From the NCBI GenBank assembly GCA_026129095.1, contig JAHCIT010000004.1, positions 186,001-250,000 on the forward strand: 64,000 bases of DNA, read 5' to 3'. How positions within the stretch are numbered: the stretch's first letter is position 1; each line of letters begins with the position of its first letter. Both the position numbers and the translations under genes were made by a program. The notes beneath the pieces were generated by a model. That model had not been told where the DNA came from and did not search any database. It was given only the letters and a program-made list of their open reading frames with translations. The DNA is from Deltaproteobacteria bacterium. Lineage in GTDB: Bacteria > JAGRBM01 > JAHCIT01. Below, piece by piece: positions 227 to 56,295 of the stretch.

Positions 227-2901
227 TGGGCTTCCACCCGCAGTTTCCCACTGACCCGTATCAGATTATTCACCCTGACGTTCGCTGGTATCCGGGCGAG
301 GAGTTGCTGGGACGAATCGGTCTCGCAAATCTCCTGCCGCCGCTGGTACACCGCATACGGGAGGGCGTATGGAAGTGGAGGGATTCCGGATATGCAGGCG
401 CCAGTGCGACGACCAAGGCACTGCTCCGGCACTGGTTCGAGACGGAACATCTCCTGCCGCAAACCGACGAAACCGTCGGAAAGTTCCGCTATTACTTTTC
501 CCAGCGTGAAGCGGTCGAATCGGCCATCTGGCTCTATGAAATAGAAGAAGCCCGCGACCCCTACGGGCTCATCAAATATGACACCGCCGGGCAGGTCACT
601 AAAAGCATGTTCCGGGAGGACTGGACCCGGTACGTGATGAAACTGGCGACCGGCGCCGGAAAGACCAAGGTGATGAGCCTGCTCATCGCGTGGTCGTACT
701 TCCACAAGATCTATGAGGAAGATTCCGAACTCAGCAAGAACTTTTTGCTGATCGCGCCGAATATCATTGTGCTTGACCGGTTGGCGACCGACTTTGACGG
801 CCTGAAGATATTTTTTGCCGATCCGGTGCTTCCGGACAACGGGTACGAGGGCCGGAACTGGCGTGACGATTTTCAGATCACGCTCCACAAACAGGATCAT
901 GTCAGCAACGTCTCCCCAACCGGCAATATCTTCCTGACCAACATTCACCGGGTCTACGAGAAGGAAGAGGCCCCGAAGACGTTTGAGGAAGCCAAAGACA
1001 AGCTCGATTTCTTCGCCGGTCCCCGCCCCACCGGGAAAACCACGGATTCAAAGGTGGACCTCGGCGATATCATCCGGAACGTCTCGGAACTGGTCGTCAT
1101 CAACGACGAGGCGCACCACGTCCATGAGGAAGACCTGGCTTGGTTCAAGAGCATCGGGGACATTTCAAATCGCCTGAAACTGAAGGGCGGCAAGCTCTCG
1201 GCGCAGTTCGACCTCACGGCGACCCCAAAACACACCAACGGCGCGATTTTCGTTCAGACGGTCAGCGACTATCCCCTTGTCGAAGCCGTCAGGCAGGGGG
1301 TCGTGAAGACGCCGGTGCTCCCCGATCCGGCCTCACGGGCAAAACTTCAGGAGCGGAAAAGTGCGAAGTTCTCGGAGCGGTACCGGGATTATCTCCAGCT
1401 CGGCTATCTGGAATGGGAAAAGGTTTATGACGAGCTGGAACCGGCCGGAAAGAAGTCGATCCTGTTCGTAATGACCGACGACACGAAGAACTGCGATGAA
1501 GTGGCGGATTACCTCGTCAAGACTTTCCCGAAGCTGGAGGATGGTGTTCTGGTCATTCACACCAAGAACAATGGTGAGATCTCGGAGTCCTCAACCGGCA
1601 AGAACAAGGACGAACTGGACAGGCTCCGTAAGCTGAGCCGTGAGATTGATAGCTGGGATAATCCGTACAAAGCGATCGTATCCGTGATGGTGCTGCGCGA
1701 AGGCTGGGACGTGCAGAACGTCGTTTCGATTGTCGGCCTTCGACCGTTCAAAGCGGCGAGCAAGATTCTTCCCGAGCAGACCATTGGGCGCGGCCTCAGG
1801 CGGATGTTCCGGGGTCAGGACATCCAGGAGAAGGTCAGTGTGATCGGGACCGATGCCTTCATCGATTTTGTGGAATCCATCAAGGATGAAGGCGTTGAAT
1901 TGGAATACGCGGCGATGAGTGACCGGACCAAGCCTCAATCGCCGACCGTGATCGAGGTGGACTCGGAGAACCGGAAGAAGGATATCGAAGCCCTTGATAT
2001 AGAAATCCCGGTCTTGGCACCGCGAATCTACAGGGAATACAAGAACCTGGCCGAGATCAATGTTTCAGAGCTGCCTGCTCCGAAGCTGAAGCTGATTCCG
2101 TTCACGCCGGAGCAGCAACGGGAAATCATCTTTCTGGAGATCGACACTGGAGCCGAGAGCCACAAGACCCTGATGGACGGGGATTTTGTCCCCAACCATC
2201 AGAATATGATTACATTCTTCGCCCGAAGCCTGATGCGTGAACTGCACCTGGTTGGTGGATTCGACGGACTGTTCGGGATGATGAAGGATTATATCCAAAA
2301 CCGGCTGTTCGAAATACCGGTCGATCTGGATGACCTCAATGTTCTCCGGAATATGTCCGAAATCGAACCGGTCAGGACGATTCAGGAAACCTTCCGGAAG
2401 GCGATCAACGATCTGACGATTCAGGACACGGGCACAACGAAGATCCAGGAATATATCAAGGTCAGCAAGACGCGACCTTACCTGTCCGACAAGAAGGAGT
2501 ATTTCAGGCCGGACAAGTCGATCTTCAACAAGGTGGTGGGCGACAGCCAGCTTGAACTCGACTTTGCGGTATTTCTCGACAAGTGCCCGGACATCGTTTC
2601 GTACTTCAAGAACTCCAACGCGACCCACTTCAAAATCGAATACAACAAGGCCGGCGGCGGCATTGCCGACTATTATCCGGATTTCGTCGTGAACCAGGAC
2701 GGCAATAACTTCTGGATTATTGAGACCAAAGGCCGGGAAGATCTGGACGATCCTCAGAAATGGGAACGCCTCAAGCAATGGTGCGAAGACGCAACTTCAC
2801 TGGAGCCGAAGAAACGCTACCGGGCACTGTTCGTCCGGCAGGACGAGTGGGAGAAATACCATCCGGCGACGTTTAACGAACTGGTGAAGGCGGTTGGTTA
2901 A
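226..2901 (+). CDS. res: Type III restriction endonuclease Res subunit (SF2 helicase-like plus PD-(D/E)xK nuclease)
   Basis: Motifs LATGAGKT, DEAHH, TATP, LREGWDV, QTIGRGLR; C-terminal YYPDF...IIETKG nuclease motif; 891 aa. Confidence 0.9.
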   Translation: MGFHPQFPTDPYQIIHPDVRWYPGEELLGRIGLANLLPPLVHRIREGVWKWRDSGYAGASATTKALLRHWFETEHLLPQTDETVGKFRYYFSQREAVESAIWLYEIEEARDPYGLIKYDTAGQVTKSMFREDWTRYVMKLATGAGKTKVMSLLIAWSYFHKIYEEDSELSKNFLLIAPNIIVLDRLATDFDGLKIFFADPVLPDNGYEGRNWRDDFQITLHKQDHVSNVSPTGNIFLTNIHRVYEKEEAPKTFEEAKDKLDFFAGPRPTGKTTDSKVDLGDIIRNVSELVVINDEAHHVHEEDLAWFKSIGDISNRLKLKGGKLSAQFDLTATPKHTNGAIFVQTVSDYPLVEAVRQGVVKTPVLPDPASRAKLQERKSAKFSERYRDYLQLGYLEWEKVYDELEPAGKKSILFVMTDDTKNCDEVADYLVKTFPKLEDGVLVIHTKNNGEISESSTGKNKDELDRLRKLSREIDSWDNPYKAIVSVMVLREGWDVQNVVSIVGLRPFKAASKILPEQTIGRGLRRMFRGQDIQEKVSVIGTDAFIDFVESIKDEGVELEYAAMSDRTKPQSPTVIEVDSENRKKDIEALDIEIPVLAPRIYREYKNLAEINVSELPAPKLKLIPFTPEQQREIIFLEIDTGAESHKTLMDGDFVPNHQNMITFFARSLMRELHLVGGFDGLFGMMKDYIQNRLFEIPVDLDDLNVLRNMSEIEPVRTIQETFRKAINDLTIQDTGTTKIQEYIKVSKTRPYLSDKKEYFRPDKSIFNKVVGDSQLELDFAVFLDKCPDIVSYFKNSNATHFKIEYNKAGGGIADYYPDFVVNQDGNNFWIIETKGREDLDDPQKWERLKQWCEDATSLEPKKRYRALFVRQDEWEKYHPATFNELVKAVG

Positions 2902-2976
2902 CCCCCTCAGTGCAGCAGTTCGACGAGGCCGGGGGAGCGGAACTCCTGGAAATACCCGACGGCGGCGGAGACGGTC
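2899..2976. repeat. 78-bp direct repeat, copy 1 (degenerate copy of the JAB gene 3' end; att-like)
   Basis: taaccccctcagtgcagcagttcgacgaggccg...gagacggtc matches 3751-3828 at 75 of 78 positions (manual alignment). Confidence 0.95.
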
Positions 2977-3277
2977 ACGCCGCCAGGCGGATGCTTTTCG
3001 CGCCGAAGTTGGCGCGGATCTCCAGTTCGCCGCCGAGGGCCTCCACGCACTTGCGGAGCGTTGACACCAGATAGTCCGTCCGGTGCTCCAGCCGCGAGAT
3101 TTCCGACTGCGACATGGCGGTCGCCTTTGCCATCTCTTCCTGCGTTTTGCCCAGCAGTTCGCGGAGCGCCCGGATGTTGATCGCCAGCACTTCCTCGGCG
3201 GCGGCCTTCTCGATGCGTGCTATCGCCTCAGGCGAAAGCTGGCTGTCACGCAGTTCCTTCCACTTGTGGATCGCCAT
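2975..3277 (-). CDS. XRE-family HTH antitoxin (HigA-like)
   Basis: LRELLGKTQEEMAKATAMSQSEISRLE HTH and VSTLRKCVEALGGELEI; lies directly downstream of the toxin. Confidence 0.9.
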   Translation of the reverse strand: MAIHKWKELRDSQLSPEAIARIEKAAAEEVLAINIRALRELLGKTQEEMAKATAMSQSEISRLEHRTDYLVSTLRKCVEALGGELEIRANFGAKSIRLAA

Positions 3278-3280
3278 GAG

Positions 3281-3664
3281 TCACCCTTTGCCTTTCTTCT
3301 GCGAGGCCGAAGCCCTTTCCATCTCTTCACGTTCAGCGAGGTACTGCTTCCAGATTTTCTCCGCCACCGGTATCCAGGTCCGGTAGAACCGGCCGTCGTC
3401 CTGTCCTTCCTTGTCGCCCCCGATAATCAGGACGGCATCCCGCGTCCTGTCGAACGCATAGAAAACCCGGATCGGCCTGCCCTTCGACTGGACCCGCAAC
3501 TCCCTCAGGGCGATGCTGGCCCCCCTGATCTCGCTGCTATGAGGATAACCCAGTGCAACACCGCATTGCTCCAGCAGTTCAACGGAGTAGGCAACCGATT
3601 CCTTGTCCGTGTCGTCCAGCGCCCTGTACCAGTCGCCGAACTCATCGGTATGCACCACTTCCAC
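3281..3664 (-). CDS. Type II toxin, RelE/ParE superfamily (HigB/Gp49-like)
   Basis: LGYPHSS...LRELRVQSKGRPIRVFYAFD...LIIGGDK signature; toxin-first gene order. Confidence 0.9.
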   Translation of the reverse strand: MEVVHTDEFGDWYRALDDTDKESVAYSVELLEQCGVALGYPHSSEIRGASIALRELRVQSKGRPIRVFYAFDRTRDAVLIIGGDKEGQDDGRFYRTWIPVAEKIWKQYLAEREEMERASASQKKGKG

Positions 3665-3670
3665 CCTGCA

Positions 3671-3699
3671 ATTATGAGGTTAAACACATAATGATGCAA
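3671..3699 (-). promoter_or_regulatory. Sigma-70 promoter of the TA operon with overlapping inverted-repeat operator
   Basis: Minus strand TTGCAT-17 bp-CATAAT, 6 nt before the GTG start. Inverted repeat ATTATG(3671-3676)-N10-CATAAT(3687-3692). Confidence 0.7.
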
Positions 3700-3750
3700 G
3701 TGAAAAAATAGCCGCCCAGGCCAACCGGTAAGCCCAATATATTCAGAGGC

Positions 3751-3828
3751 TAATCCCCTCAGTGCAGCAGTTCGACGAGGCCGAGGGAGCGGAACTCCTG
3801 GAAATACTCGACGGCGGCGGAGACGGTC
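3751..3828. repeat. 78-bp direct repeat, copy 2 (includes the last codons and stop of the JAB gene)
   Basis: 852 bp from copy 1; 3 mismatches. Confidence 0.95.
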
Positions 3829-4580
3829 TGCGGGTCGCGCTGCTGGGCGGCGCGGCCGCTGCGGCCGACGGTGATCCGGCGGGTCTCGCCGTAGACGCGG
3901 ATGAACTCGCCGAGCGATGACGCCCGCGCCGTCTGGAGGTGGCGGAAGAACTCGTACTGCGGCGAGGCGGGCTGGTAGGGGAGCTTGCGGCTCCGCGAGA
4001 CGCGGATCTTCAGCGACTCCTCGGGGTTCACGCCGGGGCGCGCGAAGGCGTCCACGACGGTCTTCTCCCGCTGGTAGCTGACGGCGAAGGGGCAGAGCAG
4101 CGCCACCTGGCGCACGCTCCCCTCGGTGATGCCGCGGTAGTAGGCGCTCATCTTGAGGCGGTAGCCGCTCACGGTGCCGGAGAGGTTCCCCTTGCGGTCG
4201 TATTTCCAGTGGGAACGGCGGCCGGTCTCGTGCAGGCTGATGACGACGGAGACGAACCGCTTGCCCATCGTGGCGACGTCGGTGTCGGAGAGGATGGGCT
4301 CCCAGGTCTGCCCGGCGTAGTCGGGGTGCGAGTGGAAGTCGCCCACCTTCCGCCAGCGGTGGAACTCGTCCATGAGCTGCCCCACCCGGCCCACGCGCTG
4401 CGTGCTGACGGACACCTCCATGAACTTGCGCTCGGCCGACTGGAGCGGCACGGCGAGGTCCACGTGGCAGGCGTCGTCGGTCATGTGCCCCAGCAGGTAG
4501 CCGAAGCACTCGCGCTTGTAGACCTCGACGGCCGCCACGGTGAGCGCGACAAACGCCTGATCCGAAAGATAGACTCGCAT
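3759..4580 (-). CDS. JAB/MPN+ (Mov34) metalloprotease-domain protein with an extra C-terminal domain
   Basis: JAMM motif: E in KRECFGYLLG, then GDFHSHP...LSDTD. Start chosen at ATG 4580, which follows GGAG/GAGG. Confidence 0.8.
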   Translation of the reverse strand: MRVYLSDQAFVALTVAAVEVYKRECFGYLLGHMTDDACHVDLAVPLQSAERKFMEVSVSTQRVGRVGQLMDEFHRWRKVGDFHSHPDYAGQTWEPILSDTDVATMGKRFVSVVISLHETGRRSHWKYDRKGNLSGTVSGYRLKMSAYYRGITEGSVRQVALLCPFAVSYQREKTVVDAFARPGVNPEESLKIRVSRSRKLPYQPASPQYEFFRHLQTARASSLGEFIRVYGETRRITVGRSGRAAQQRDPQTVSAAVEYFQEFRSLGLVELLH

Positions 4581-4980
4581 GGCCTCATCTCCGCTCCGCC
4601 GGTTCCTTCCTCGTGTGCCTGTGAAGGACGGCGTATCTGCTTTGCGTGTAACGTCCGGGGCCTGTCCGCTGCGGCGCATCCAGGGGGCTGGATTCAGCGT
4701 CAGGCCATGCCACGGCTCGCTGGGGGAAAGTGTGGAGCCGGGCCGGATGGCGTGGCAAGGGAGGGGGCCATCGGGGAGCGCGGTAGTGTCTGAAATACCC
4801 AGTTATCCCAACAAGTTATAATATTTTCTGAGTCTCCAGGTCCCGCCTGTCCCGTTAATTTGATGCCCTGCGCTATTGCCGGGTGGCATTATGCCGATTT
4901 CATTGGGAACCTGGCCCAAGGCGGGCTAAAACTGATCCCCGTCAACCCGACACTCAACGAAAAGGGAGAGTCCCCAACCC

Positions 4981-5571
4981 ATGATGGAACGCCGCTCATT
5001 CCTCCGCACCACCGCCACCGGACTTGTTGTCGCCCCCGCTGCCCTCGCCGCCGGATGCGCCTCCACCACGGCCCATGCCGCTTACAAGGGCAAGCCGTTC
5101 AAGGGCTCTCTGAAGGGGACCGAGTGGGAGGGCCTCGAAACGACGAGCCCCGACATCCAGCACCCGTATTTCACGGACAAGACCTGGGAGGCGACCATTC
5201 CCGACTACCTCGAGTACAACCGCATCCGCGAGGACACCCTCGGCCGCCGCAGCGACGAGATGATCATCAAGCACGAGCCGCACCTGAAAGTTGCCGGGAA
5301 CCGGTCGGACTCGATGGTGGACTTCATCAACACGCTCAAGCATCCGCACGTCCACAACCACTGGTGGTCGTGGGTCGAGCTGTGGGACGGGAAAACCCAG
5401 CCCACGGTCATCAGCATCCTCGCGCCCAAGGAGGGGGAAACCCTCTACGGTCCCGAGGGCATCCAGTTCTTCGCCTGGCTCTACACGCCCAGGCCGTTCG
5501 GAAACGACGTGGTCCGCGTGCGGGCCTACTGCGTGACGCACGGCCTGTTCACCAAATACGAGAAGATCTAG
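4981..5571 (+). CDS. Tat-exported lipoprotein with a superoxide reductase (neelaredoxin/desulfoferrodoxin-like) iron-binding domain
   Basis: ERRSFL twin-arginine motif, LAAGC lipobox; KHEP, HPHVHNH (H-x5-H) and YCVTHGL (C-x2-H) give the 4His-1Cys ligand pattern; GGGAG RBS. Confidence 0.75.
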   Translation: MMERRSFLRTTATGLVVAPAALAAGCASTTAHAAYKGKPFKGSLKGTEWEGLETTSPDIQHPYFTDKTWEATIPDYLEYNRIREDTLGRRSDEMIIKHEPHLKVAGNRSDSMVDFINTLKHPHVHNHWWSWVELWDGKTQPTVISILAPKEGETLYGPEGIQFFAWLYTPRPFGNDVVRVRAYCVTHGLFTKYEKI

Positions 5572-5580
5572 GCATTGCGC

Positions 5581-6096
5581 GTGACCAGCGAAGGCCCACA
5601 ACCCGCCGCCGCCCCGCGGCGGCCCCGGAAGAAATCCCTCGACCAGCGGATCGAGGGCGATCTGGAGCGCGGCGACCTCGCCTCGGCCCGCCGCCGGATC
5701 GAGAGCCGCCTCCAGATCGAAACCGACCCCCTGCGGGCCGGCCGGCTCCGCACCCACCTGATCCAGGTGCTGGTCCAGATGGGCGACCCGGAGCGGGCCG
5801 GCATGTACGCGCTGCTCGTCGAGGACGACTCGGCCGAGCTGAACAGCCTGCGGACGCTGTTCATCCGGCGGTGCGGGGGCTCCAGCCAGACGGTGAAGGA
5901 CCGCTCGGCCGCCTACCGCCGTGCCGTCGGCCCCAGGGCGCAGGACCGTCTCGACCAGCTCTTCATGGACCTCACGCCGTTCAAGGCCCACCCGGAGAAG
6001 TGGCGCAAGATCAACCTCAACGAATCCCTGGGGACGTTCATCTTCCTTGGGATCATGCTCGTCTTCATCGTCATGGGCGTCCGGTCGTGCTCCTGA
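5581..6096 (+). CDS. Hypothetical protein, TPR-like helical N-terminus and C-terminal TM helix (resembles DUF6584)
   Basis: Host-like codon usage; DLERGDLASARRR...GDPERAG pattern; C-terminal hydrophobic FIFLGIMLVFIVMGV. Start could be 5575 or 5581. Confidence 0.55.
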   Translation: MTSEGPQPAAAPRRPRKKSLDQRIEGDLERGDLASARRRIESRLQIETDPLRAGRLRTHLIQVLVQMGDPERAGMYALLVEDDSAELNSLRTLFIRRCGGSSQTVKDRSAAYRRAVGPRAQDRLDQLFMDLTPFKAHPEKWRKINLNESLGTFIFLGIMLVFIVMGVRSCS

Positions 6097-6149
6097 AGGG
6101 GCTCCCTCCCGCCGCCCGCCCGGCCGTGATATCCTCACCCTGACCGGCC

Positions 6150-8258
6150 ATGAACCTGGCGAACCAGATATCGCTCATTTCCGCCGTGCTGTGCGCGGCG
6201 CTGGCGTTCGCCGTGATCTACAAGAACCGGCAGAACGATGTCCGCCGGACGTTTTCCTACGTGGCCGCCGGGCTCGCCCTCTGGAACCTGTTTGCCTACC
6301 TGGGCGGCATCTTCCCCCGGACCGAACTGCTCCACCGGTTCACGGTGATGGCTGCCGCGCTGATCCCGCCGCTCGCCATCCGGTTCCTGCGGATTTTCCT
6401 CTACGCCGAGATGCCGACCCTGAGGCGGTCCACCCGTTCCATGTCCACGGCCAGCACGCTGGTGATCCTGCTGGCGGCGGTCATCCCCGTCACCACAACC
6501 GCCACCGGCGCCGGCACACGCATGCCCTACCTCGATTACGGCATGCTGTTCTACCTGGGAATCACGGTTCTCTACTGCTTCTACATCCTGCTGCGCCGCG
6601 AGCGCGAACTGCCCCGCCAGACGACCGAGCGGACGCGCCTCAAGTACCTGCGCAACGGCTCGATGGTCATCCTGGCCGCGGGGCTCATCGACCTCGCCAT
6701 CCTGCTGACCAGCGGCGAACGCCACCGGTTCTCGGCCATGGCGACAAGCGTCTACGCCTACTTCATCTACCTGTCGATCCTGAACTACCGGCTGCTGGAG
6801 TACCAGGAGATCGTCGTCCGCGCCGCCATCATCGCCACGATCGCCACGGTCTTCTCGGCCGTGTACGGGGTTCTGGTCTTCTGGGTCGATTCGTTTGGCG
6901 TGACCGTGCTCTACACGATGATCGCGTCGATCATCATCCTCGTGATCTACGATCCGGTGAACAAGTACGTCGAGGACCGGTTCGCCACGTTTTTCCTGCG
7001 CCCCAAGCGCGAACTGAGCGAGGTGCTCGCCGTCCTGAGCCGCGAGATGATCCGCGCCACCGACGCCCGGCAGCTCGCCTCGATCATCGCCCGGCACATG
7101 AAGGTGCTCGAACGGGTGACCGACCTGGCCATCTACTTCCGCGACCGCCGGACCGGGCGGCTGGGGCTCCACGCCTGCTTCGGCCGGATGGCGACCTCCC
7201 TGCCGCCCGTGCTGGACCGGCTGGAGCTGCTGTTCGAACTGGAGTCGAGCCGGTCGCCGCTTTCGGCCGAGCATCTGGAACAGGAACGGCGCGCCACGCC
7301 GCCGGGATCCCGGCGGGACTACCTGGGGGTGATCCACGGCGAGATGGAACGGCTCAACGCGGCGGTCGTCCTGCCGGTACCCGGCGCCGACGACCTCGCC
7401 GGAATCGTCTGCATCCGCGACGAGCGGGCGGTCGAGGGCTACGACGCGGACGAGATCACCCTGCTGGCCACCATCGCCACGCAGGCGGCGATGCTGCTGG
7501 AAAACTTCCGGTCCAACGACCGCATCCGCGCCCGGTCGCGCATGGCCGCGCTGGGAGAGATGGCCGCCGGACTGGCGCATGAAATCCGCAACCCCCTGGG
7601 TTCGATCAAGGGGGCCGTGCAGGTGCTCGAAACCAGCCGGTCGCCGGAGCAGAACCAGGAGTTTCTCTCGATCATACTGGAAGAAGTCCAGCGCCTGAAC
7701 CGGGTGGTGAGCGAGTTCCTCAACTACGCCCGCGAGCCCAAGCCTCAACTGGAGCCGGTGGACCTGAACCGCCTCATCGAGCGGACGGCGCGGCAGGTGT
7801 CTCTGGCCGAGGAGCAGGGAGAGGTGAAGATCGTCCTCGATCTCGCCGAAAACCTGCCGCAACTCGCCGCCGATCCCGAACAGATCAAGCAGGTGCTCCT
7901 CAACCTTGTCAGCAATGCCTTCGTGGCCATGAAGGACCGCACAGCCCGCGTGCTCACGCTCCGGACCCGCTGGCGGCCAGCCCCCGACGGCGGACAGGGC
8001 TCGGTGGTGATCCAGATTGCCGACACCGGCAGCGGAATGAACCCCGAAACACTGGACCGGGTGTTCACGCCCTTTTTCACCACCCGGCCAGAGGGGACCG
8101 GCATCGGCCTGCCGGTTTGCGAACGGCTCGTCGAGGCCCACGGCGGCACCATCGACGTCAACTCCCGGGAGGGCGAGGGAACGGAGTTCACGATCGTCCT
8201 GCCGCTGCCGCCCGCCGAAGTCCCCGCAGCCGCAGGGACCACTGGAAACGCGGCGTGA
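6150..8258 (+). CDS. Sensor histidine kinase (multi-TM N-terminus, GAF, HisKA, HATPase)
   Basis: Many hydrophobic segments; LAHEIRNPL H-box, NLVSNA N-box, DTGSGM, FTPFFTT, GTGIGL. Confidence 0.93.
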   Translation: MNLANQISLISAVLCAALAFAVIYKNRQNDVRRTFSYVAAGLALWNLFAYLGGIFPRTELLHRFTVMAAALIPPLAIRFLRIFLYAEMPTLRRSTRSMSTASTLVILLAAVIPVTTTATGAGTRMPYLDYGMLFYLGITVLYCFYILLRRERELPRQTTERTRLKYLRNGSMVILAAGLIDLAILLTSGERHRFSAMATSVYAYFIYLSILNYRLLEYQEIVVRAAIIATIATVFSAVYGVLVFWVDSFGVTVLYTMIASIIILVIYDPVNKYVEDRFATFFLRPKRELSEVLAVLSREMIRATDARQLASIIARHMKVLERVTDLAIYFRDRRTGRLGLHACFGRMATSLPPVLDRLELLFELESSRSPLSAEHLEQERRATPPGSRRDYLGVIHGEMERLNAAVVLPVPGADDLAGIVCIRDERAVEGYDADEITLLATIATQAAMLLENFRSNDRIRARSRMAALGEMAAGLAHEIRNPLGSIKGAVQVLETSRSPEQNQEFLSIILEEVQRLNRVVSEFLNYAREPKPQLEPVDLNRLIERTARQVSLAEEQGEVKIVLDLAENLPQLAADPEQIKQVLLNLVSNAFVAMKDRTARVLTLRTRWRPAPDGGQGSVVIQIADTGSGMNPETLDRVFTPFFTTRPEGTGIGLPVCERLVEAHGGTIDVNSREGEGTEFTIVLPLPPAEVPAAAGTTGNAA

Positions 8259-8310
8259 GGGGTAGTGCCCTTCCCTAGTTCCCGTCCGGCGGGCTATGAA
8301 CCCTTCCTGA

Positions 8311-9699
8311 ATGGAAAACTCCGACTACAGCATCCTCGTCGTCGATGACGAACCGAACATGCGGAAAGTCCTCTCGGCGCTCCTGGGCGGCGAGGGTTAC
8401 GACGTGGAGACGGCCGATTCCGGTGCGAAGGCGCTCGACATGCTCCGCCAGGACCAGTTCCACGCGATGATTACCGACCTGCGCATGCCGGGCATGGACG
8501 GCCTGGAACTGCTGCGGAAATCCCGGCAGTTCCAGCCGCGCCTGCCCGTCATCATGCTGACGGCGCACGGGACCGTGGACACGGCGGTCGAGGCGATCAA
8601 GCAGGGCGCGTTCGACTACCTTTCCAAGCCGTTCGACAAGAGCGAGATCGTGGGCGTGGTGGACAAGGCGCTCCGGTCGTACGAAATCTCCCAGCAGGAT
8701 GTCGTGGACCCCGAGCGCAAGCCGGCCGACCTGCCGCTCATCGGCGAGCACCCGTCCATGAAGGAGATATTCCGGATGGTGGACAAGGTGGCAGCCTCGC
8801 CGTCCACGGTGCTCATCTCCGGCGAATCGGGCACGGGCAAGGAGCTCATCGCCCAGCTCATCCATGACCGGTCGGACCGGGCGAAAAAGCCGCTCATCAA
8901 GCTGCACTGCGCGGCAATCCCGTCAACGCTTCTGGAGAGCGAGCTGTTCGGATACGAGAAGGGCGCCTTCACCGGGGCCGTCACCTCCAAGCCCGGCCGG
9001 TTCGAGCTGGCCGATGGCGGCACACTGTTCATGGACGAGGTGGGCGACATTCCGCTGGAGATGCAGGTGAAGCTCCTGCGGGTTCTCCAGGACCAGCAGT
9101 TCGAGCGGGTGGGCGGCGTGAAGACCAGCCAGGTGGACGTGCGCCTCGTGGCCGCCACCCACCGCGATCTCAATGCCGCCGTCCGCGAGGGGCGGTTCCG
9201 CGAGGACCTGTTCTACCGGCTGAACGTCGTGCCCCTGCACCTGCCCCCGCTCCGCGAGCGGCAGAGCGACATCCCGCTGCTGGCCGACCACTTCCGGCGG
9301 AAGTTCAATACCCGGCTGAACCGCAACGTCCAGTCGATCTCGCCGGAAGCGATGGAAAAGCTGGCCGCCTTCAGCTGGCCGGGGAACATCCGCCAGCTCG
9401 AAAACGTCATGGAGCGGTCGATGCTGTTCTGCGAGGGGACCGTCCTCACCGGTCAGGATATCCCGTCTCTGGAGGGAACCGTGCCGCTCCCGCCGCCGGG
9501 AGCGGCGTCCGCCGCGGCCCCCGAAGCCGCCGCCGGGAGGTTCAAGGAACTGACCCGCGAGGCGTCCGTCCGGGTCCAGCGGGAAATCATCCTCAAGGCG
9601 CTCGAAGAGCACAACCACAACGTCACCCGAACCGCCAAGGCGCTCGGCCTTTCGCGCAAGGGATTGCAGCTGAAACTGAAGGATCTGGGACTCCGGTAG
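8311..9699 (+). CDS. Sigma-54-dependent response regulator (NtrC/AtoC family)
   Basis: REC (VVDDE, TDLRMP), GESGTGKE, GAFTGA, DLFYRLNV, WPGNIRQLEN, C-terminal Fis-type HTH. Confidence 0.95.
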   Translation: MENSDYSILVVDDEPNMRKVLSALLGGEGYDVETADSGAKALDMLRQDQFHAMITDLRMPGMDGLELLRKSRQFQPRLPVIMLTAHGTVDTAVEAIKQGAFDYLSKPFDKSEIVGVVDKALRSYEISQQDVVDPERKPADLPLIGEHPSMKEIFRMVDKVAASPSTVLISGESGTGKELIAQLIHDRSDRAKKPLIKLHCAAIPSTLLESELFGYEKGAFTGAVTSKPGRFELADGGTLFMDEVGDIPLEMQVKLLRVLQDQQFERVGGVKTSQVDVRLVAATHRDLNAAVREGRFREDLFYRLNVVPLHLPPLRERQSDIPLLADHFRRKFNTRLNRNVQSISPEAMEKLAAFSWPGNIRQLENVMERSMLFCEGTVLTGQDIPSLEGTVPLPPPGAASAAAPEAAAGRFKELTREASVRVQREIILKALEEHNHNVTRTAKALGLSRKGLQLKLKDLGLR

Positions 9700-9706
9700 G
9701 GAGAAC

Positions 9707-10057
9707 CTACAGGAGGCTGAGCGACTGGCTCTCGATGAAATGGAGTATCCGCTCCCGCAGCGGCACATCGATCTCCGTAAACTCGATGCCGATACCGGCG
9801 GTTTCCTCCTCGCGCACGTCCATCTGCCGCCAGCGGATCACGCCGCGGGCCTCGACCATGTCACCCAGATAGGGAAGCTGGAACCGGACTGTCACTTCGG
9901 TGCCGGGGGCGAGGCTGCTGCGCGCCCGGAGGAACATGCCGCCGCCGGAAAGATTACCGCCCGGCGAGAAGACCGTCGTCGCCGGCTGGGCCATGCACCG
10001 GACAGCCCCTTGGAACGGCACCCGGTGGTGTTTCCGTAGCTCCGAACCCTGTGACAT
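9707..10057 (-). CDS. Single-domain PilZ protein (c-di-GMP receptor)
   Basis: RKHHR (RxxxR) and NLSGGG (D/NxSxxG) motifs; GIGIEF near the C-terminus. Confidence 0.88.
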   Translation of the reverse strand: MSQGSELRKHHRVPFQGAVRCMAQPATTVFSPGGNLSGGGMFLRARSSLAPGTEVTVRFQLPYLGDMVEARGVIRWRQMDVREEETAGIGIEFTEIDVPLRERILHFIESQSLSLL

Positions 10058-10193
10058 GGGGCACATGCTATCAGAAATGGATGGCGCTCGCCACGTTTTT
10101 CATTTCCCGAATTGGCAGAAATGGAAACAGGACATCCGGCAGGCAAATTGTCTACTGCGGTATACCGGACAGTCGGTTCAGGGAGCGGACTGG

Positions 10194-11555
10194 TCAGCTG
10201 GCCGGAGCGGCGGCGGCAGGAGCGGCAGGCTGCGCCGCCGGGGCGTTCATGGTCATCAGCGTCTGCATGATGAACGGCTTGGCAATCAGGAACATGTTCG
10301 CAGTCTTGTCGATCTGCGTGGCGAGCCCCGACAGCAGCGAAAAGGTCCGGCCGTACAGGATGATGTCGTTGGGGATCGTGATCCGGTCGATCTTCTCGAT
10401 CGTTGCCAGCACGTCCTCCCGGATCTTGCGGAAATCCAGGTTCTTCGCCTCCTGCGGCGAGAGGTGGAAATAGTGCTGGAAAAACTCCGACAAGATGGGG
10501 CGCACTGCCTCCAGGTCGGCGTCGCCCAGGACTCCCAGTCCCTTCAGCGCCGGAAGGAACTGGTTCACGTCCCGGGAGAGGAAAGCGAAAACGGCGGCGA
10601 GGAGCTTCTGGTGAAACTCCTTCGGGAGGATCTTCACCTGGCCGAAGTCGAGGACGCAGACGACCACCTTGCCGCCAATCTTGTTGAACATGAGATTGCC
10701 CGGATGCGGGTCGGACTGGAACACCCCGTCCTGGTACATCATCTTGGTCCAGGCGTTCAGGATCATCGTCAGCGTTTCACGGCGGTCGATCTCCAGTTCC
10801 TTCATCTTGGCGAAATTGGTGATCTTGTAGCCGTCGAAGAACTCCATGCAGATCACATGGCGCGTGGTGTATTTGCGGATCACGCGGGGGATGACGACCC
10901 CGCCCGTAAACCCGGCGAAGTTATTCCCGATCGTCTCGCAGTAGGCCGCTTCCTGCTCGTAGGAGAGTTCATTCGACAGCGCGTGTGACATCTCCCGGCC
11001 GATCACCGACAGGTCGGTGCGGGGAATGAAGATGTTGAACATCTTCACCGCCGTCCGGAGCATCCACAGGTCCACCTTCAGCTTGAACTCGATGTCCTCG
11101 TGCTGGATCTTGAGGACCACTTCCTCGCCCTCTTTCGTCCGGGCCCGGTGGACCTGTCCGAAACTGGCGGCGGCGAGCGCATTATGGTCGATCCACTCGA
11201 ATATCCCGTCCGGTTCGCCGCCCAGTTCCGCCTTGAGGGTCTTGTGGATATAGGGCCAGGGCGTCGGCGGCACGCTGTCCTGGAGCAGCGACAGTTCCTC
11301 GATCCATTCCCGCGGCATCACGTCCACACGGGCGGAAATGAGCTGCCCCACCTTGATCATGCCGCCTTTCAGCTTCACGGCCATGCGGTAGAACCGCTTT
11401 GCGTACTTGCGGTGCGTGGCGCGCCATTTCTCGCGGGTGGTCCGTATTCCCAGCCACTTCCGCCGGTACCACAGGAACACGTAGTAGAGGTACATGGGCA
11501 GCAGCGTCCCGGCGATGATGCTGAAACGGTAAACGGTCGCAAGTGCCTGTCGCAT
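10194..11555 (-). CDS. ABC1/AarF/UbiB-family atypical kinase
   Basis: IKVGQ, AAASFGQVH, VLKIQ, DPHPGN, LDFG. Confidence 0.92.
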   Translation of the reverse strand: MRQALATVYRFSIIAGTLLPMYLYYVFLWYRRKWLGIRTTREKWRATHRKYAKRFYRMAVKLKGGMIKVGQLISARVDVMPREWIEELSLLQDSVPPTPWPYIHKTLKAELGGEPDGIFEWIDHNALAAASFGQVHRARTKEGEEVVLKIQHEDIEFKLKVDLWMLRTAVKMFNIFIPRTDLSVIGREMSHALSNELSYEQEAAYCETIGNNFAGFTGGVVIPRVIRKYTTRHVICMEFFDGYKITNFAKMKELEIDRRETLTMILNAWTKMMYQDGVFQSDPHPGNLMFNKIGGKVVVCVLDFGQVKILPKEFHQKLLAAVFAFLSRDVNQFLPALKGLGVLGDADLEAVRPILSEFFQHYFHLSPQEAKNLDFRKIREDVLATIEKIDRITIPNDIILYGRTFSLLSGLATQIDKTANMFLIAKPFIMQTLMTMNAPAAQPAAPAAAAPAS

Positions 11556-11573
11556 GGGTTCGGGGTGCCGTCC

Positions 11574-12680
11574 TTACTGGCTGCGCTCGGCAAGCCAGAG
11601 CGCCATCGGCGCCCAGATGTGTTTCTTCGCCCGCGATCCGGTCACGAGACCGATGTGGCCCACCTCCACCTTGACGCAGGTCTTGTCCTTCGAGCTGACC
11701 AGGCCTATCAGCGCCTCGACAGATTCCGGTGCGGCCACCTTGTCGGTCATCCCGACGAACAGCAGCAGGTTGGCCTCGACGTTGGCGAGGTCCACGCGGC
11801 GGCCCTTCATCACCAGCTGTCCCCGGCGCACCTTGTCGTCGCGGATGAAGTCCGTCACGAACTGGACGAACGCCTCCTGCGGATAGGCGATGAAACCCCG
11901 CCCCCAGTCACGGATCGTCTCGAATCCCGCCACATACTCCCGGTCCCAGTAGTTCATCAGCAGGTTGAGATAGCGGGTCAGCATTCCGAACGGAGCGAGC
12001 ATCTCGAAGCCGATGCGCGGCAGGATCGGCGGCAGGTTGCCCATCTTCTCCATCGTGGCCCCGATACCCATGCCGAAGAACTTCACCAGCAGGTTGACGG
12101 GGAACATCTTCGAGAAGTCGAACGGGCTCCCCAGCACGATGGCGTTCCGCAGGTGGGCGTCCTTCTGGTATACCGACGCGTACAGCATGCTCATGATGCC
12201 GCCCATAGACCAGCCGATTGTCGAGACCTCGTTCTCGCCTGTCACCTCGCAGATCTTCGCAATCGCCTTCGGGATGAAGTCGGTCACGTAGTCATCCACG
12301 CGGATTTCCCGGTCGGCGTCCGTCGGCGATCCGAAGTCCACCAGAAAGACATCGAAACCGGCATCCAGCAGGAAATGGATCAGCGAGTGTCCGGGGCGCA
12401 GATCGAAAACGTCCGGGTTCACCATGAGCGGCGGAATAATGACCACCGGGGTCCGGTAGGTCCGCGCCTTTGTCGTATGGTACCGGAGCAGCGTCACGTT
12501 CTCCCACATGAACACCGTGCGGGAGAACGAGCGGACCTGCGGCGTGAGCGGCCCCAGGACGGCGCGCTCGACCAGATGGGCCGAACCCAGCGCCATCCGC
12601 CGGGCCGTTACTGCTGGTCTGATCTGGGGAAGTGCCGCCACAACCTCCAGTGCATATCCGAAACCGCCCGAAACCCGCAA
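11574..12680 (-). CDS. Alpha/beta hydrolase, PHA synthase (PhaC)-like, with Ser nucleophile; start uncertain (possibly 12596)
   Basis: PVVIIPPL...FDLRPGHSL..FL...GFDVFLVDFG; GWSMGG; D in GMTDKV; H in GHIG. Confidence 0.8.
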   Translation of the reverse strand: MRVSGGFGYALEVVAALPQIRPAVTARRMALGSAHLVERAVLGPLTPQVRSFSRTVFMWENVTLLRYHTTKARTYRTPVVIIPPLMVNPDVFDLRPGHSLIHFLLDAGFDVFLVDFGSPTDADREIRVDDYVTDFIPKAIAKICEVTGENEVSTIGWSMGGIMSMLYASVYQKDAHLRNAIVLGSPFDFSKMFPVNLLVKFFGMGIGATMEKMGNLPPILPRIGFEMLAPFGMLTRYLNLLMNYWDREYVAGFETIRDWGRGFIAYPQEAFVQFVTDFIRDDKVRRGQLVMKGRRVDLANVEANLLLFVGMTDKVAAPESVEALIGLVSSKDKTCVKVEVGHIGLVTGSRAKKHIWAPMALWLAERSQ

Positions 12681-55254: not shown

Positions 55255-56295
55255 CTAGTAGCGGCCCAGAAACCGGACGTCGTTCTCGAAAAAGAGTCTC
55301 AGGTCGGGAATCCGGTATTTCAACATGGCGAGCCGCTCAATTCCGGTCCCGAATGCAAACCCCTGCACCTTTTCGGGGTCGTAGTTCACCGCCTTGAGGA
55401 CGTTGGGATCCACCATCCCCGCTCCCAGCACCTCAAGCCAGCCGGTGTGCTTGCAGACGCCACAGCCCTTGCCGCCGCAGAACACGCACTGGATGTCCAC
55501 TTCAGCCGATGGCTCGGTGAACGGGAAGAAGCTCGGCCGCAGGCGGACTTCCTGTTCCGGACCGAACAGTTCCCGGATAAACGCCCGCAGCACGCCCTTC
55601 AGGTCCGCAAAGGTGATCTGCTCGTCAATCCAGAGCACTTCCATCTGGTGAAACATGGGTGAATGGGTCTGGTCCGAATCACACCGGTAGACGCGACCGG
55701 TGCAGATCACCTTCACCGGCGGCTTGCGCTTGAGCATCGCCCGGATCTGGACCGGCGACGTGTGCGTGCGAAGCACCACGCCGGGAGCGACATAGAACGT
55801 GTCCTGCATGTCGCGGGCCGGATGGTCAGCGGGAAAGTTCAGAGCCTCGAAGTTGTAGTAGTCGAGCTCGACTTCCGGCCCGTCCACGACACTGAATCCC
55901 ATCCGGAGCAGGATATCGCGCACCTCGCGTTCCATCTGCGAAACGGGATGCATGCGGCCGAGCGGCACTCCCCGCGACGGCAAGGTGATGTCCAGCGATT
56001 CGGCGGCGAGTTTCTGGTCCAGTTCCGCGCTGTACAGTTCACGGCGGCGTGCTTCCATCGCGGCCGTGAGCTGTTCCTTGGCTGCATTGGCGGCCTTGCC
56101 CAGTTCGGCCCGCTCGGCGTCCGGCACGTTCCGGAGCGTGGCGAGGACATCCGAAACAAGGCCCTTCTTGCGGCCCAGATACCGGGTATCGATCTCCTGG
56201 AGCGCCGCGACAGAACCCGCCGAGGCAATCTCGGCAAGGCCCTGTTCGGTCACCGCCTTCAGACGGGAGGCCGGAGTGGCGTCGGGGGTGCCCAT
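55255..56295 (-). CDS. pheS: Phenylalanine-tRNA ligase alpha subunit
   Basis: HPARDMQDTF, RTHTS, FPFTEPS, GFAFG. Confidence 0.97.
   Translation of the reverse strand: MGTPDATPASRLKAVTEQGLAEIASAGSVAALQEIDTRYLGRKKGLVSDVLATLRNVPDAERAELGKAANAAKEQLTAAMEARRRELYSAELDQKLAAESLDITLPSRGVPLGRMHPVSQMEREVRDILLRMGFSVVDGPEVELDYYNFEALNFPADHPARDMQDTFYVAPGVVLRTHTSPVQIRAMLKRKPPVKVICTGRVYRCDSDQTHSPMFHQMEVLWIDEQITFADLKGVLRAFIRELFGPEQEVRLRPSFFPFTEPSAEVDIQCVFCGGKGCGVCKHTGWLEVLGAGMVDPNVLKAVNYDPEKVQGFAFGTGIERLAMLKYRIPDLRLFFENDVRFLGRY

Follow-up and report, generated by a model that had tools for sequence, protein, structure and literature searches.

How does a toxin-antitoxin (TA) pair that is accompanied by no integrase, transposase or phage gene come to be inserted at the 3' end of a bacterial gene, with that gene end repeated on both sides of it? 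The question is raised by a locus in a stretch of 64,000 nucleotides (the window) from a Deltaproteobacteria bacterium, where a cassette of 771 bp carrying a TA pair lies between direct repeats derived from the 3' end of a JAB/MPN-like gene. The window corresponds to positions 186001-250000 of contig JAHCIT010000004.1 (C18; 334,849 bp) of a genome (G000) of 3.67 Mb in 23 contigs that is 96.65% complete. Positions given without a contig are those of the window; the wider locus L025 is C18:181001-193000, so that an L025 position is the window position plus 5000. In the initial annotation the JAB 3' end was taken as an attachment site of a minimal TA element mobilised in trans, possibly in tandem with a larger restriction-modification (R-M) island to its left. 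Comparison with relatives and with the rest of the genome shows an insertion with a duplication, empty sites in relatives, no recombinase nearby and the same pattern again at three further genes. On balance, these observations are probably best explained by a general, recombinase-free insertion with long target duplication, and not by an attachment site specific to JAB or by a dedicated recombinase.

The duplicated gene end and the empty site

The direct repeat extends over 2896-2976 (the left copy, A') and 3748-3828 (the right copy, A), the two copies being identical at 77 of 81 nt (95%) with a spacing of 852 nt. Within the 78-nt frame in which the repeat was first described (2899-2976 and 3751-3828) there are three mismatches, and the 75/78 identities claimed for it are correct. 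A blastn search of the 3.67-Mb genome with A as the query returned exactly two copies: A' was matched with an E-value of 4.4e-31 and the next-best match was 28 nt long with an E-value of 0.02, which puts the repeat far outside what chance would give. The longest exact run common to both copies is 29 nt. A is the functional JAB 3' end and holds the final 22 codons of the gene together with one base of the adjoining codon, the stop codon (3759-3761) and 11 nt past the stop; its translation ends in TVSAAVEYFQEFRSLGLVELLH followed by the stop. The right copy had been described as the last 22 or so codons and the stop of JAB, which is accurate, with the addition that the repeat also reaches 11 nt past the stop. 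A' is a dead JAB 3' end of the same composition (11 nt past the stop, the stop, 22 codons and one base), and its translation, which ends in TVSAAVGYFQEFRSPGLVELLH and the stop, carries the two non-synonymous changes previously noted, E>G and L>P. Beyond these, A and A' differ at two bases, both within the 11 nt past the stop. The stop of the restriction gene res to the left (TAA, 2899-2901) occupies positions 4-6 of A', and the antitoxin stop (2975-2977) is made from the last 2 nt of A' and 1 nt of cargo, the two stops sitting, as had been observed, on opposite ends of the left copy.

The 771-bp cassette entered JAB 70 nt inside its 3' end, and with it came a duplication of 81 bp, that is 70 nt of coding sequence including the stop and the 11 nt past it. 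The duplication preserves the JAB reading frame. The earlier proposal that a protein-coding gene received the cassette in its 3' end is supported.

The site was compared in four relatives: three genomes of the same family and another genus (G001, G002 and G003), in which JAB orthologs 79-81% identical to the window's gene are found in conserved synteny, and a metagenome contig (L024) with an ortholog of 77% identity. In all four the site is empty, with both flanks aligned and one copy of the repeat region, and the stop of a convergent membrane-protein gene is located 5-27 nt from the JAB stop with nothing between them. Because the flanks are kept at four of four empty sites, the R-M genes and the TA cassette together amount to an insertion of 5.8 kb. 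JAB was matched in six of 41 genomes, G000 included, and was not found in two genomes of a sister family in the same order; it belongs to the conserved core and is the gene that the insertion targeted. The residue affected by E>G is polymorphic among the working orthologs, being E in G001 and G003 and G in G002 and L024. L>P, on the other hand, is found in A' alone among all the copies compared.

Base composition agrees with the limits of the insertion. The G+C content (GC) is 0.49-0.56 across approximately C18:184000-189000 and about 0.59 in the cassette, compared with 0.65-0.70 in the flanks. The foreign block (C18:183934-189747; 5.8 kb) comprises the modification gene mod, res, the dead JAB end, the antitoxin and the toxin, and only its final 852 nt are bracketed by the repeats. 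The low GC of the R-M genes and the lack of a counterpart in the relatives bear out the earlier view that these genes are foreign; they are a separate foreign block at the same junction of convergent genes.

Repeats of this kind could also be produced if the left copy or the cassette were a chimeric join of strain variants made during assembly or binning. The assembly is in 23 contigs, and contigs of one public run (X4; L025:7902-8780) break at both repeats with uneven depths, 21.5 and 21.3 in the flanks, 15.6 in the cassette and about 8 in res, which suggests that strain variants co-exist at the locus. However, at least part of the window's 2300-4700 is contained in 20 of 24 listed public runs (11 studies), and when four runs from four studies (X1, X4, X6 and X7) were aligned to C18:181001-193000 as assembled contigs, independent contigs of X1, X6 and X7, three runs from three studies, were found to carry the junctions. 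A single X1 contig of 11,245 nt spans L025 positions 4201-12000 in one gapless alignment that contains 250 differences (about 3%), from which it follows that a diverged strain has the same order of res, A', the TA pair, A and JAB. The X7 contig (L025 7722-8127; one difference) spans res, A' and the antitoxin, and the X6 contig (L025 8330-8952; no differences) spans the toxin, A and JAB. The two copies, moreover, have no exact stretch of at least 31 nt in common. An artefact of assembly or binning is very unlikely given these contigs. No joint that skips 852 nt or goes back by 852 nt was listed in the four runs, although rare forms would be invisible in assembled contigs.

Recombinases, attachment sites and the same scar at other genes

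A dedicated attachment site on which a recombinase would act in trans is not supported. No third copy of the repeat was found in the genome by blastn, no tyrosine or serine recombinase is encoded on contig C18, and the pattern recurs at three other gene ends. The seven Phage_integrase and two Resolvase matches in the genome are all on contigs other than C18. A different cargo at the JAB site was seen in none of the four relatives, none of 80 loci carrying toxin relatives has a JAB homolog nearby, and the cassette DNA has no match in plasmid or phage collections. Nor was the tandem arrangement with the larger R-M island borne out, there being no third copy and nothing above chance at the left border of the R-M block, where local alignment with the JAB end gave only an exact match of 9 nt, within the range of shuffled controls. 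A tandem array of attachment sites that includes the R-M block was rejected, as that block is without any flanking repeat.

The 9-nt match, GCTAATCCC (C18:184070-184078; L025:3070-3078), is positioned 60 nt upstream of mod and corresponds to the right repeat at its left end. A short target duplication made by the R-M block is one possible origin for it, though by the shuffle test the match is within chance. A DNA transposon was also rejected, with no 7-mer inverted repeat between the cargo ends, no open reading frame (ORF) for a transposase and a duplication of 81 bp. Elsewhere in the genome, C19:108202-113059 is a classical island of 4.8 kb, with a tyrosine integrase and a few genes between 71-nt repeats of a tRNA 3' end, and offers a contrast case that an integrase has made.

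When the genome was compared with itself, 91 pairs of direct repeats of at least 40 nt within 6 kb were obtained, and a finer scan yielded 32. The majority belong to paralogous or repetitive genes or to terminator hairpins, and all that the finer scan added were hits in such hairpins or in repetitive proteins. Four pairs, JAB itself among them, follow the JAB pattern: the 3' end of a gene has a copy stranded beyond a small insert of low GC.

In the first of the other three (C11:7914-7965 and 8553-8604; L026:2914-3604) the 3' end of a class-V aminotransferase gene is repeated at 51 of 52 nt around a gene of 101 aa that is VapD/Cas2-like, its matches being below cut-off (Cas2 23.2 bits, VapD 33 bits). 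The site is empty in three of three relatives, with 83-117 nt from the neighbouring gene to the aminotransferase stop, compared with about 1.9 kb in G000. Just outside the repeats is a second block of low GC with two ORFs of no known family, and local alignment at this locus found only a 12-nt exact match, again within shuffled controls.

The second (C19:151349-151411 and 153484-153546; L027:3349-5546) has 59 of 63 nt of the 3' end of a beta-propeller gene repeated around what resembles a type II controller-restriction-modification (C-R-M) unit, with an HTH_3 controller-like gene, an ORF of 184 aa of no known family and an N6_N4 methylase (159 bits) at a GC of 0.51. This site adjoins a tRNA gene. 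It is empty in G003, where the tRNA is followed by about 60 nt and then the stop of the beta-propeller gene; G001 and G002 have no match to the beta-propeller gene there, so one of the three relatives is informative.

At the third (C18:54026-54239 and 55617-55830; L030:3026-4830) it is a B12-binding radical SAM gene whose 3' end is repeated, at 209 of 214 nt, and the cargo within C18:54026-55830 is an AHH nuclease (56.5 bits) with an ORF of 158 aa that is possibly its immunity gene. The end of the radical SAM gene is single-copy in G003, and synteny is lost, so that there is no clean empty site.

The four repeats have no common motif beyond GC-rich 8-9-mers, and the cargos are without terminal inverted repeats or common ends. 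All four cargos have a GC of 0.51-0.59 against flanks of about 0.65-0.68, except on the left of the TA cassette, where the flank (0.54) belongs to the foreign R-M block. The duplication ends 11 nt past the stop codon at JAB and 4, 1 and 56 nt past it at the other loci, and the coding differences between copies at the three non-JAB loci are five synonymous and one non-synonymous. The presence of other cassettes at three other gene ends, with no common motif, points to a process that is general and not site-specific.

Two further pairs were noted in the self-comparison. One on C12, of 44 nt, surrounds an MpaB oxygenase gene that the relatives carry on other contigs, with no synteny; the other, on C1, is 66 nt long at 83% identity and involves a DnaB_C gene.

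The initial proposal does have a known form, that of a decayed, integrase-less cis-mobilisable element (CIME) or microCIME, a remnant of an integrative element of the ICE or IME type as described from Streptococcus (and reportedly treated by Bellanger et al. in 2011), with attachment sites in the JAB 3' end and mobilisation in trans or by accretion. Integration would then be by a tyrosine recombinase, and the copy of the gene end would have been carried in by the element. In the work on Streptococcus (PMC7563491) CIMEs are defined as remnants flanked by attachment sites that lack recombination genes, and the locus has several features in common with them: direct repeats at the 3' end of a protein gene, which is restored, no recombination genes, an adaptive or addictive cargo, and a possible tandem with another foreign block. 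A block of identity that stops just past the stop codon and synonymous-type differences at the other loci would also be expected of such elements, and the seven tyrosine and two serine recombinases elsewhere in the genome, as well as its classical tRNA island with an integrase, also speak for this origin. Unlike the CIMEs described there, however, the locus shows no integrase-bearing relative at the site, no third attachment-site copy and no remnant of an integrase in or near the cassette. The antitoxin stop leaves 0 nt up to A', and on the other side there are only 83 nt. The relatives are empty in four of four cases and hold other cargo in none, JAB is beside none of the 80 toxin relatives, and the cassette is unmatched among plasmids and phages. 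To account for four targets in a single genome, each with its own repeat length, four specificities would be required, and every one of the four elements would have to be reduced to addiction modules only. Finally, the most decayed elements of S. salivarius are, according to the same work, those farthest from the target gene, whereas here the bracketed unit adjoins the target. A decayed CIME is therefore judged to be an unlikely origin of the cassette.

Genes of the cassette, its neighbours and its relatives

The cassette carries, on the minus strand, a toxin of 127 aa with a GTG start (3281-3664), which belongs by its domain to the Gp49/DUF891 family of the HigB/RelE superfamily (PF05973, 57.2 bits against a cut-off of 23.9), and an antitoxin of 100 aa (2975-3277) with an HTH_3 (XRE-type) domain (Pfam PF01381, 39.8 bits against a cut-off of 23). 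The two genes are on the same strand with the toxin first and a gap of 3 nt between them. Judged by domains and operon layout the pair is a HigBA-like type II TA module; toxin-first order, the 3-nt gap, domains above cut-off and widespread relatives of the same layout are all as in HigBA modules, and set beside these the genes themselves are ordinary, the best relative being 63% identical. Upstream of the toxin is an AT-richer region of 83 nt (3665-3747, minus strand) with a weak terminator-like hairpin (3723-3709). It had been stated that the 852-bp unit holds only a promoter, the toxin and the antitoxin, with no recombinase. ORFs and Pfam matches agree with this as regards the genes. The promoter fared less well: a consensus scan found no sigma-70-like promoter at its threshold in 2700-4900, and a promoter-like match of 8/12 positions, TTGCAT-17-CATAAT (3699-3671), is seen by eye in the 83-nt region.

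The JAB/MPN-like gene (3759-4580, minus strand) encodes 273 aa. Its Pfam matches are all sub-threshold (Prok-JAB 24.1 bits against a cut-off of 25), and the motif HSHP-x12-SDTD adds support to the label.

Outside the repeats to the left are the type III R-M genes, both on the plus strand. The 3' end of mod is at 1-226, the whole gene (C18:184130-186226) encoding 698 aa with partial NCBIfam matches to adenine DNA methyltransferases that are below cut-off. The restriction subunit res (226-2901; 891 aa) has Pfam matches to ResIII (54.7 bits) and RE_endonuc (24.7 bits). The foreign block has at its left edge, directly past the membrane-protein stop, a run of 11 G (C18:183934-183944; L025:2934-2944), which varies in length or context between runs, with an additional GG in X4 and GATTT in X1. 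The central part of mod (C18:184514-185201; L025:3514-4201) also varies: in X1 878 letters replace 686, and X4 too has unlike sequence at about this place. This variable centre looks like the allelic target-recognition domains of such genes.

Relatives of the toxin number 319 in the genome contig collection, and the 80 loci compared come from many phyla. In eight of eight relative loci with ORFs listed, an ORF of about 100-123 aa directly follows the toxin. The toxin is single-copy in G000; G001 and G002 hold homologs of 50-56% identity elsewhere, and none closer. Repeats bracket the TA pair in five of the 49 loci with full 4-kb flanks, against one or two of 49 at shifted control positions; the excess in the family is weak, two of the five resembling hairpins of the repetitive extragenic palindromic (REP) type. 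Three loci do appear from their sequences to resemble the JAB case. In a member of the Dehalococcoidia (L083:1785-4889) a repeat of 75 nt with the last codons and stop of a gene surrounds an insert of 3 kb that contains the TA pair. In a member of the Paracoccaceae (L071:3374-5292) a direct repeat of 421 nt including the 3' end of the neighbouring gene lies around the TA pair, and in another of the Deltaproteobacteria (L065:3574-6059) the repeat is 282 nt of the end of a NuoN-like gene.

Known insertion classes and the route of entry

Insertion with long target duplication was reportedly described for R-M systems by Nobusato et al. in 2000 (Gene 259:99). The features of the class, according to Furuta, Abe and Kobayashi (2010; PMC2853133), are repeats of more than 30 bp, no mobility genes, an insert of less than 20 kb and an empty site in which the repeat is present once, the repeats often overlapping the 3' end of a flanking gene; restriction cleavage is hypothesised there to take part in the insertion, and the life cycle is given as insertion, amplification through the repeats and release. 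The JAB locus has several features in common with this class. It is a small selfish unit (771 bp, and thus under 20 kb) without integrase, transposase or phage genes, flanked by unique repeats of more than 30 bp that overlap the 3' end of the flanking gene and have a length that depends on the case, with a foreign GC in the insert and a one-copy empty site; the parallel case on C19 is itself a type II C-R-M unit. It differs in that the cargo at JAB is a type II TA pair, with mod and res to the left of the left repeat, and that the cargos on C11 and at C18:54026 are a VapD-like gene and an AHH nuclease with its partner ORF. The rule that R and M lie between the repeats does not hold at JAB, but it is a rule of that R-M screen and not a part of the mechanism. 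Since the cassette is without an enzyme that cuts both strands, insertion driven by restriction cleavage is not directly transferable to it. In titles and abstracts of the literature on 'long target duplication' (searched together with 'toxin-antitoxin' and, alone, from 2012) a TA cargo is unreported. The JAB case fits, on its sequence features, as a TA-cargo instance of this known and mechanistically unsolved class.

In such an insertion, host enzymes of DNA repair or replication would join the foreign DNA at a break or a stalled fork at the gene end. The target would be re-copied during the joining, giving the 81-bp duplication, and the copy beside the gene body would keep JAB intact while the other would be left as a dead fragment, with the antitoxin on one side of it and the type III R-M genes on the other. 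Later, homologous recombination between the repeats may allow the cargo and one repeat to be lost, amplified or passed to close relatives. The addictive nature of the TA pair would favour retention of the cassette.

Several points weigh against a recombinase-free insertion of this kind. Three of the four duplications stop merely 1, 4 or 11 nt past the stop of the target, where a random staggered break predicts otherwise. Five of the six coding differences at the other three loci are synonymous, and the E/G difference between the JAB copies is one that is polymorphic among working orthologs; ends aligned to the stop together with allele-like differences suggest that one copy may have come in along with the cargo, although they rest on small numbers. 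A search for Ku found none in the genome, which is 96.65% complete, so that capture by non-homologous end-joining was rejected and end-joining is left without an obvious enzyme. The screen of Furuta and colleagues needed R and M between the repeats, and here the R-M genes are outside them. Next to the dead copy at two of the four loci there is a further foreign block that no repeats bracket, and this would have to be a coincidence. Lastly, the comparison rests on four relatives, none of the window's own genus.

The boundaries, the synonymous excess and the E/G polymorphism look like the difference between two functional alleles and so favour an integration of the Campbell type or the attachment-site type. 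In Campbell-type entry the donor would have had the cargo behind the stop codon of its own allele, and a fragment or circle with the cargo and 50-200 nt of gene end would have recombined by host homology, the homology being duplicated instead of the resident allele being replaced. Reportedly, a chromosomal R-M unit was found by Handa et al. in 2001 to resist replacement, the survivors being rearranged. At JAB, replacement would delete the resident addictive R-M genes, so that only add-on recombinants would have survived, and a different foreign block is indeed already at the site in two of the four loci. A recombinase would be unnecessary, matching its lack on C18, and the boundaries 1-11 nt past the stop in three of four loci are as expected; ComEC is present, though this is generic. 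A related variant in two steps, a tandem duplication and then homologous recombination with an allele that lacks part of it, is given by Lim et al. (2012; PMC3457768). Against this route, no donor allele with the TA pair adjoining JAB and no A' was seen in the four relatives or the four runs, a circular or one-sided intermediate is required, and a homology of 52-81 nt is short for RecA. L>P, unique to A', is equally compatible with later decay, and the synonymous excess has a P of about 0.04 by hand calculation without JAB and is not significant when JAB is included. Campbell-type entry is thus regarded as a possibility of lesser weight, and not as the probable one. It overlaps with recombinase-free insertion and long target duplication, as the repeats would permit such spread once the structure exists.

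A gene end supplied by the incoming element has a parallel. The element e14 and phage 21 integrate into icd and bring with them a substitute 3' end. As at JAB, the working copy of the gene end is beside the gene body and the displaced copy beyond the insert, the homology runs out close to the stop codon, and silent differences between the copies are possible. Unlike the JAB cassette, with 771 bp and a TA pair, these elements are much larger and encode their own integrase.

A bolder reading, to which only tentative credence is given, joins an addiction cassette (a TA pair, a VapD-like gene, an R-M unit, or a nuclease toxin with a partner ORF) and a copy of 50-200 nt of gene end into a recombinase-free mobile unit, the copy serving as a homology 'attachment site' for host recombination. 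If this were true, the unit could be lost as a loop, be amplified and enter related genomes again while leaving the target gene undisrupted. It would explain both the stop-aligned boundaries and the silent differences between copies, and would extend the route of long target duplication to addiction modules generally.

The entry of tiny selfish modules without mobility genes into chromosomes is poorly understood. In one genome the same scar is found at four different core genes, the cargo being in turn a TA pair, a VapD-like gene, a type II R-M unit and a nuclease toxin, with clean empty sites in relatives for the first three. Because the scar surrounds TA, VapD-like and nuclease cargo, the process cannot rest on restriction cleavage alone. 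The stop-aligned boundaries and the silent differences are testable clues to the mechanism and, as near-identical DNA is present in runs of 11 studies, tests at the level of the population are feasible. For annotation, the locus advises caution: short pseudo-3'-ends beside defence or TA genes are to be taken as scars of insertion and not, by default, as attachment sites.

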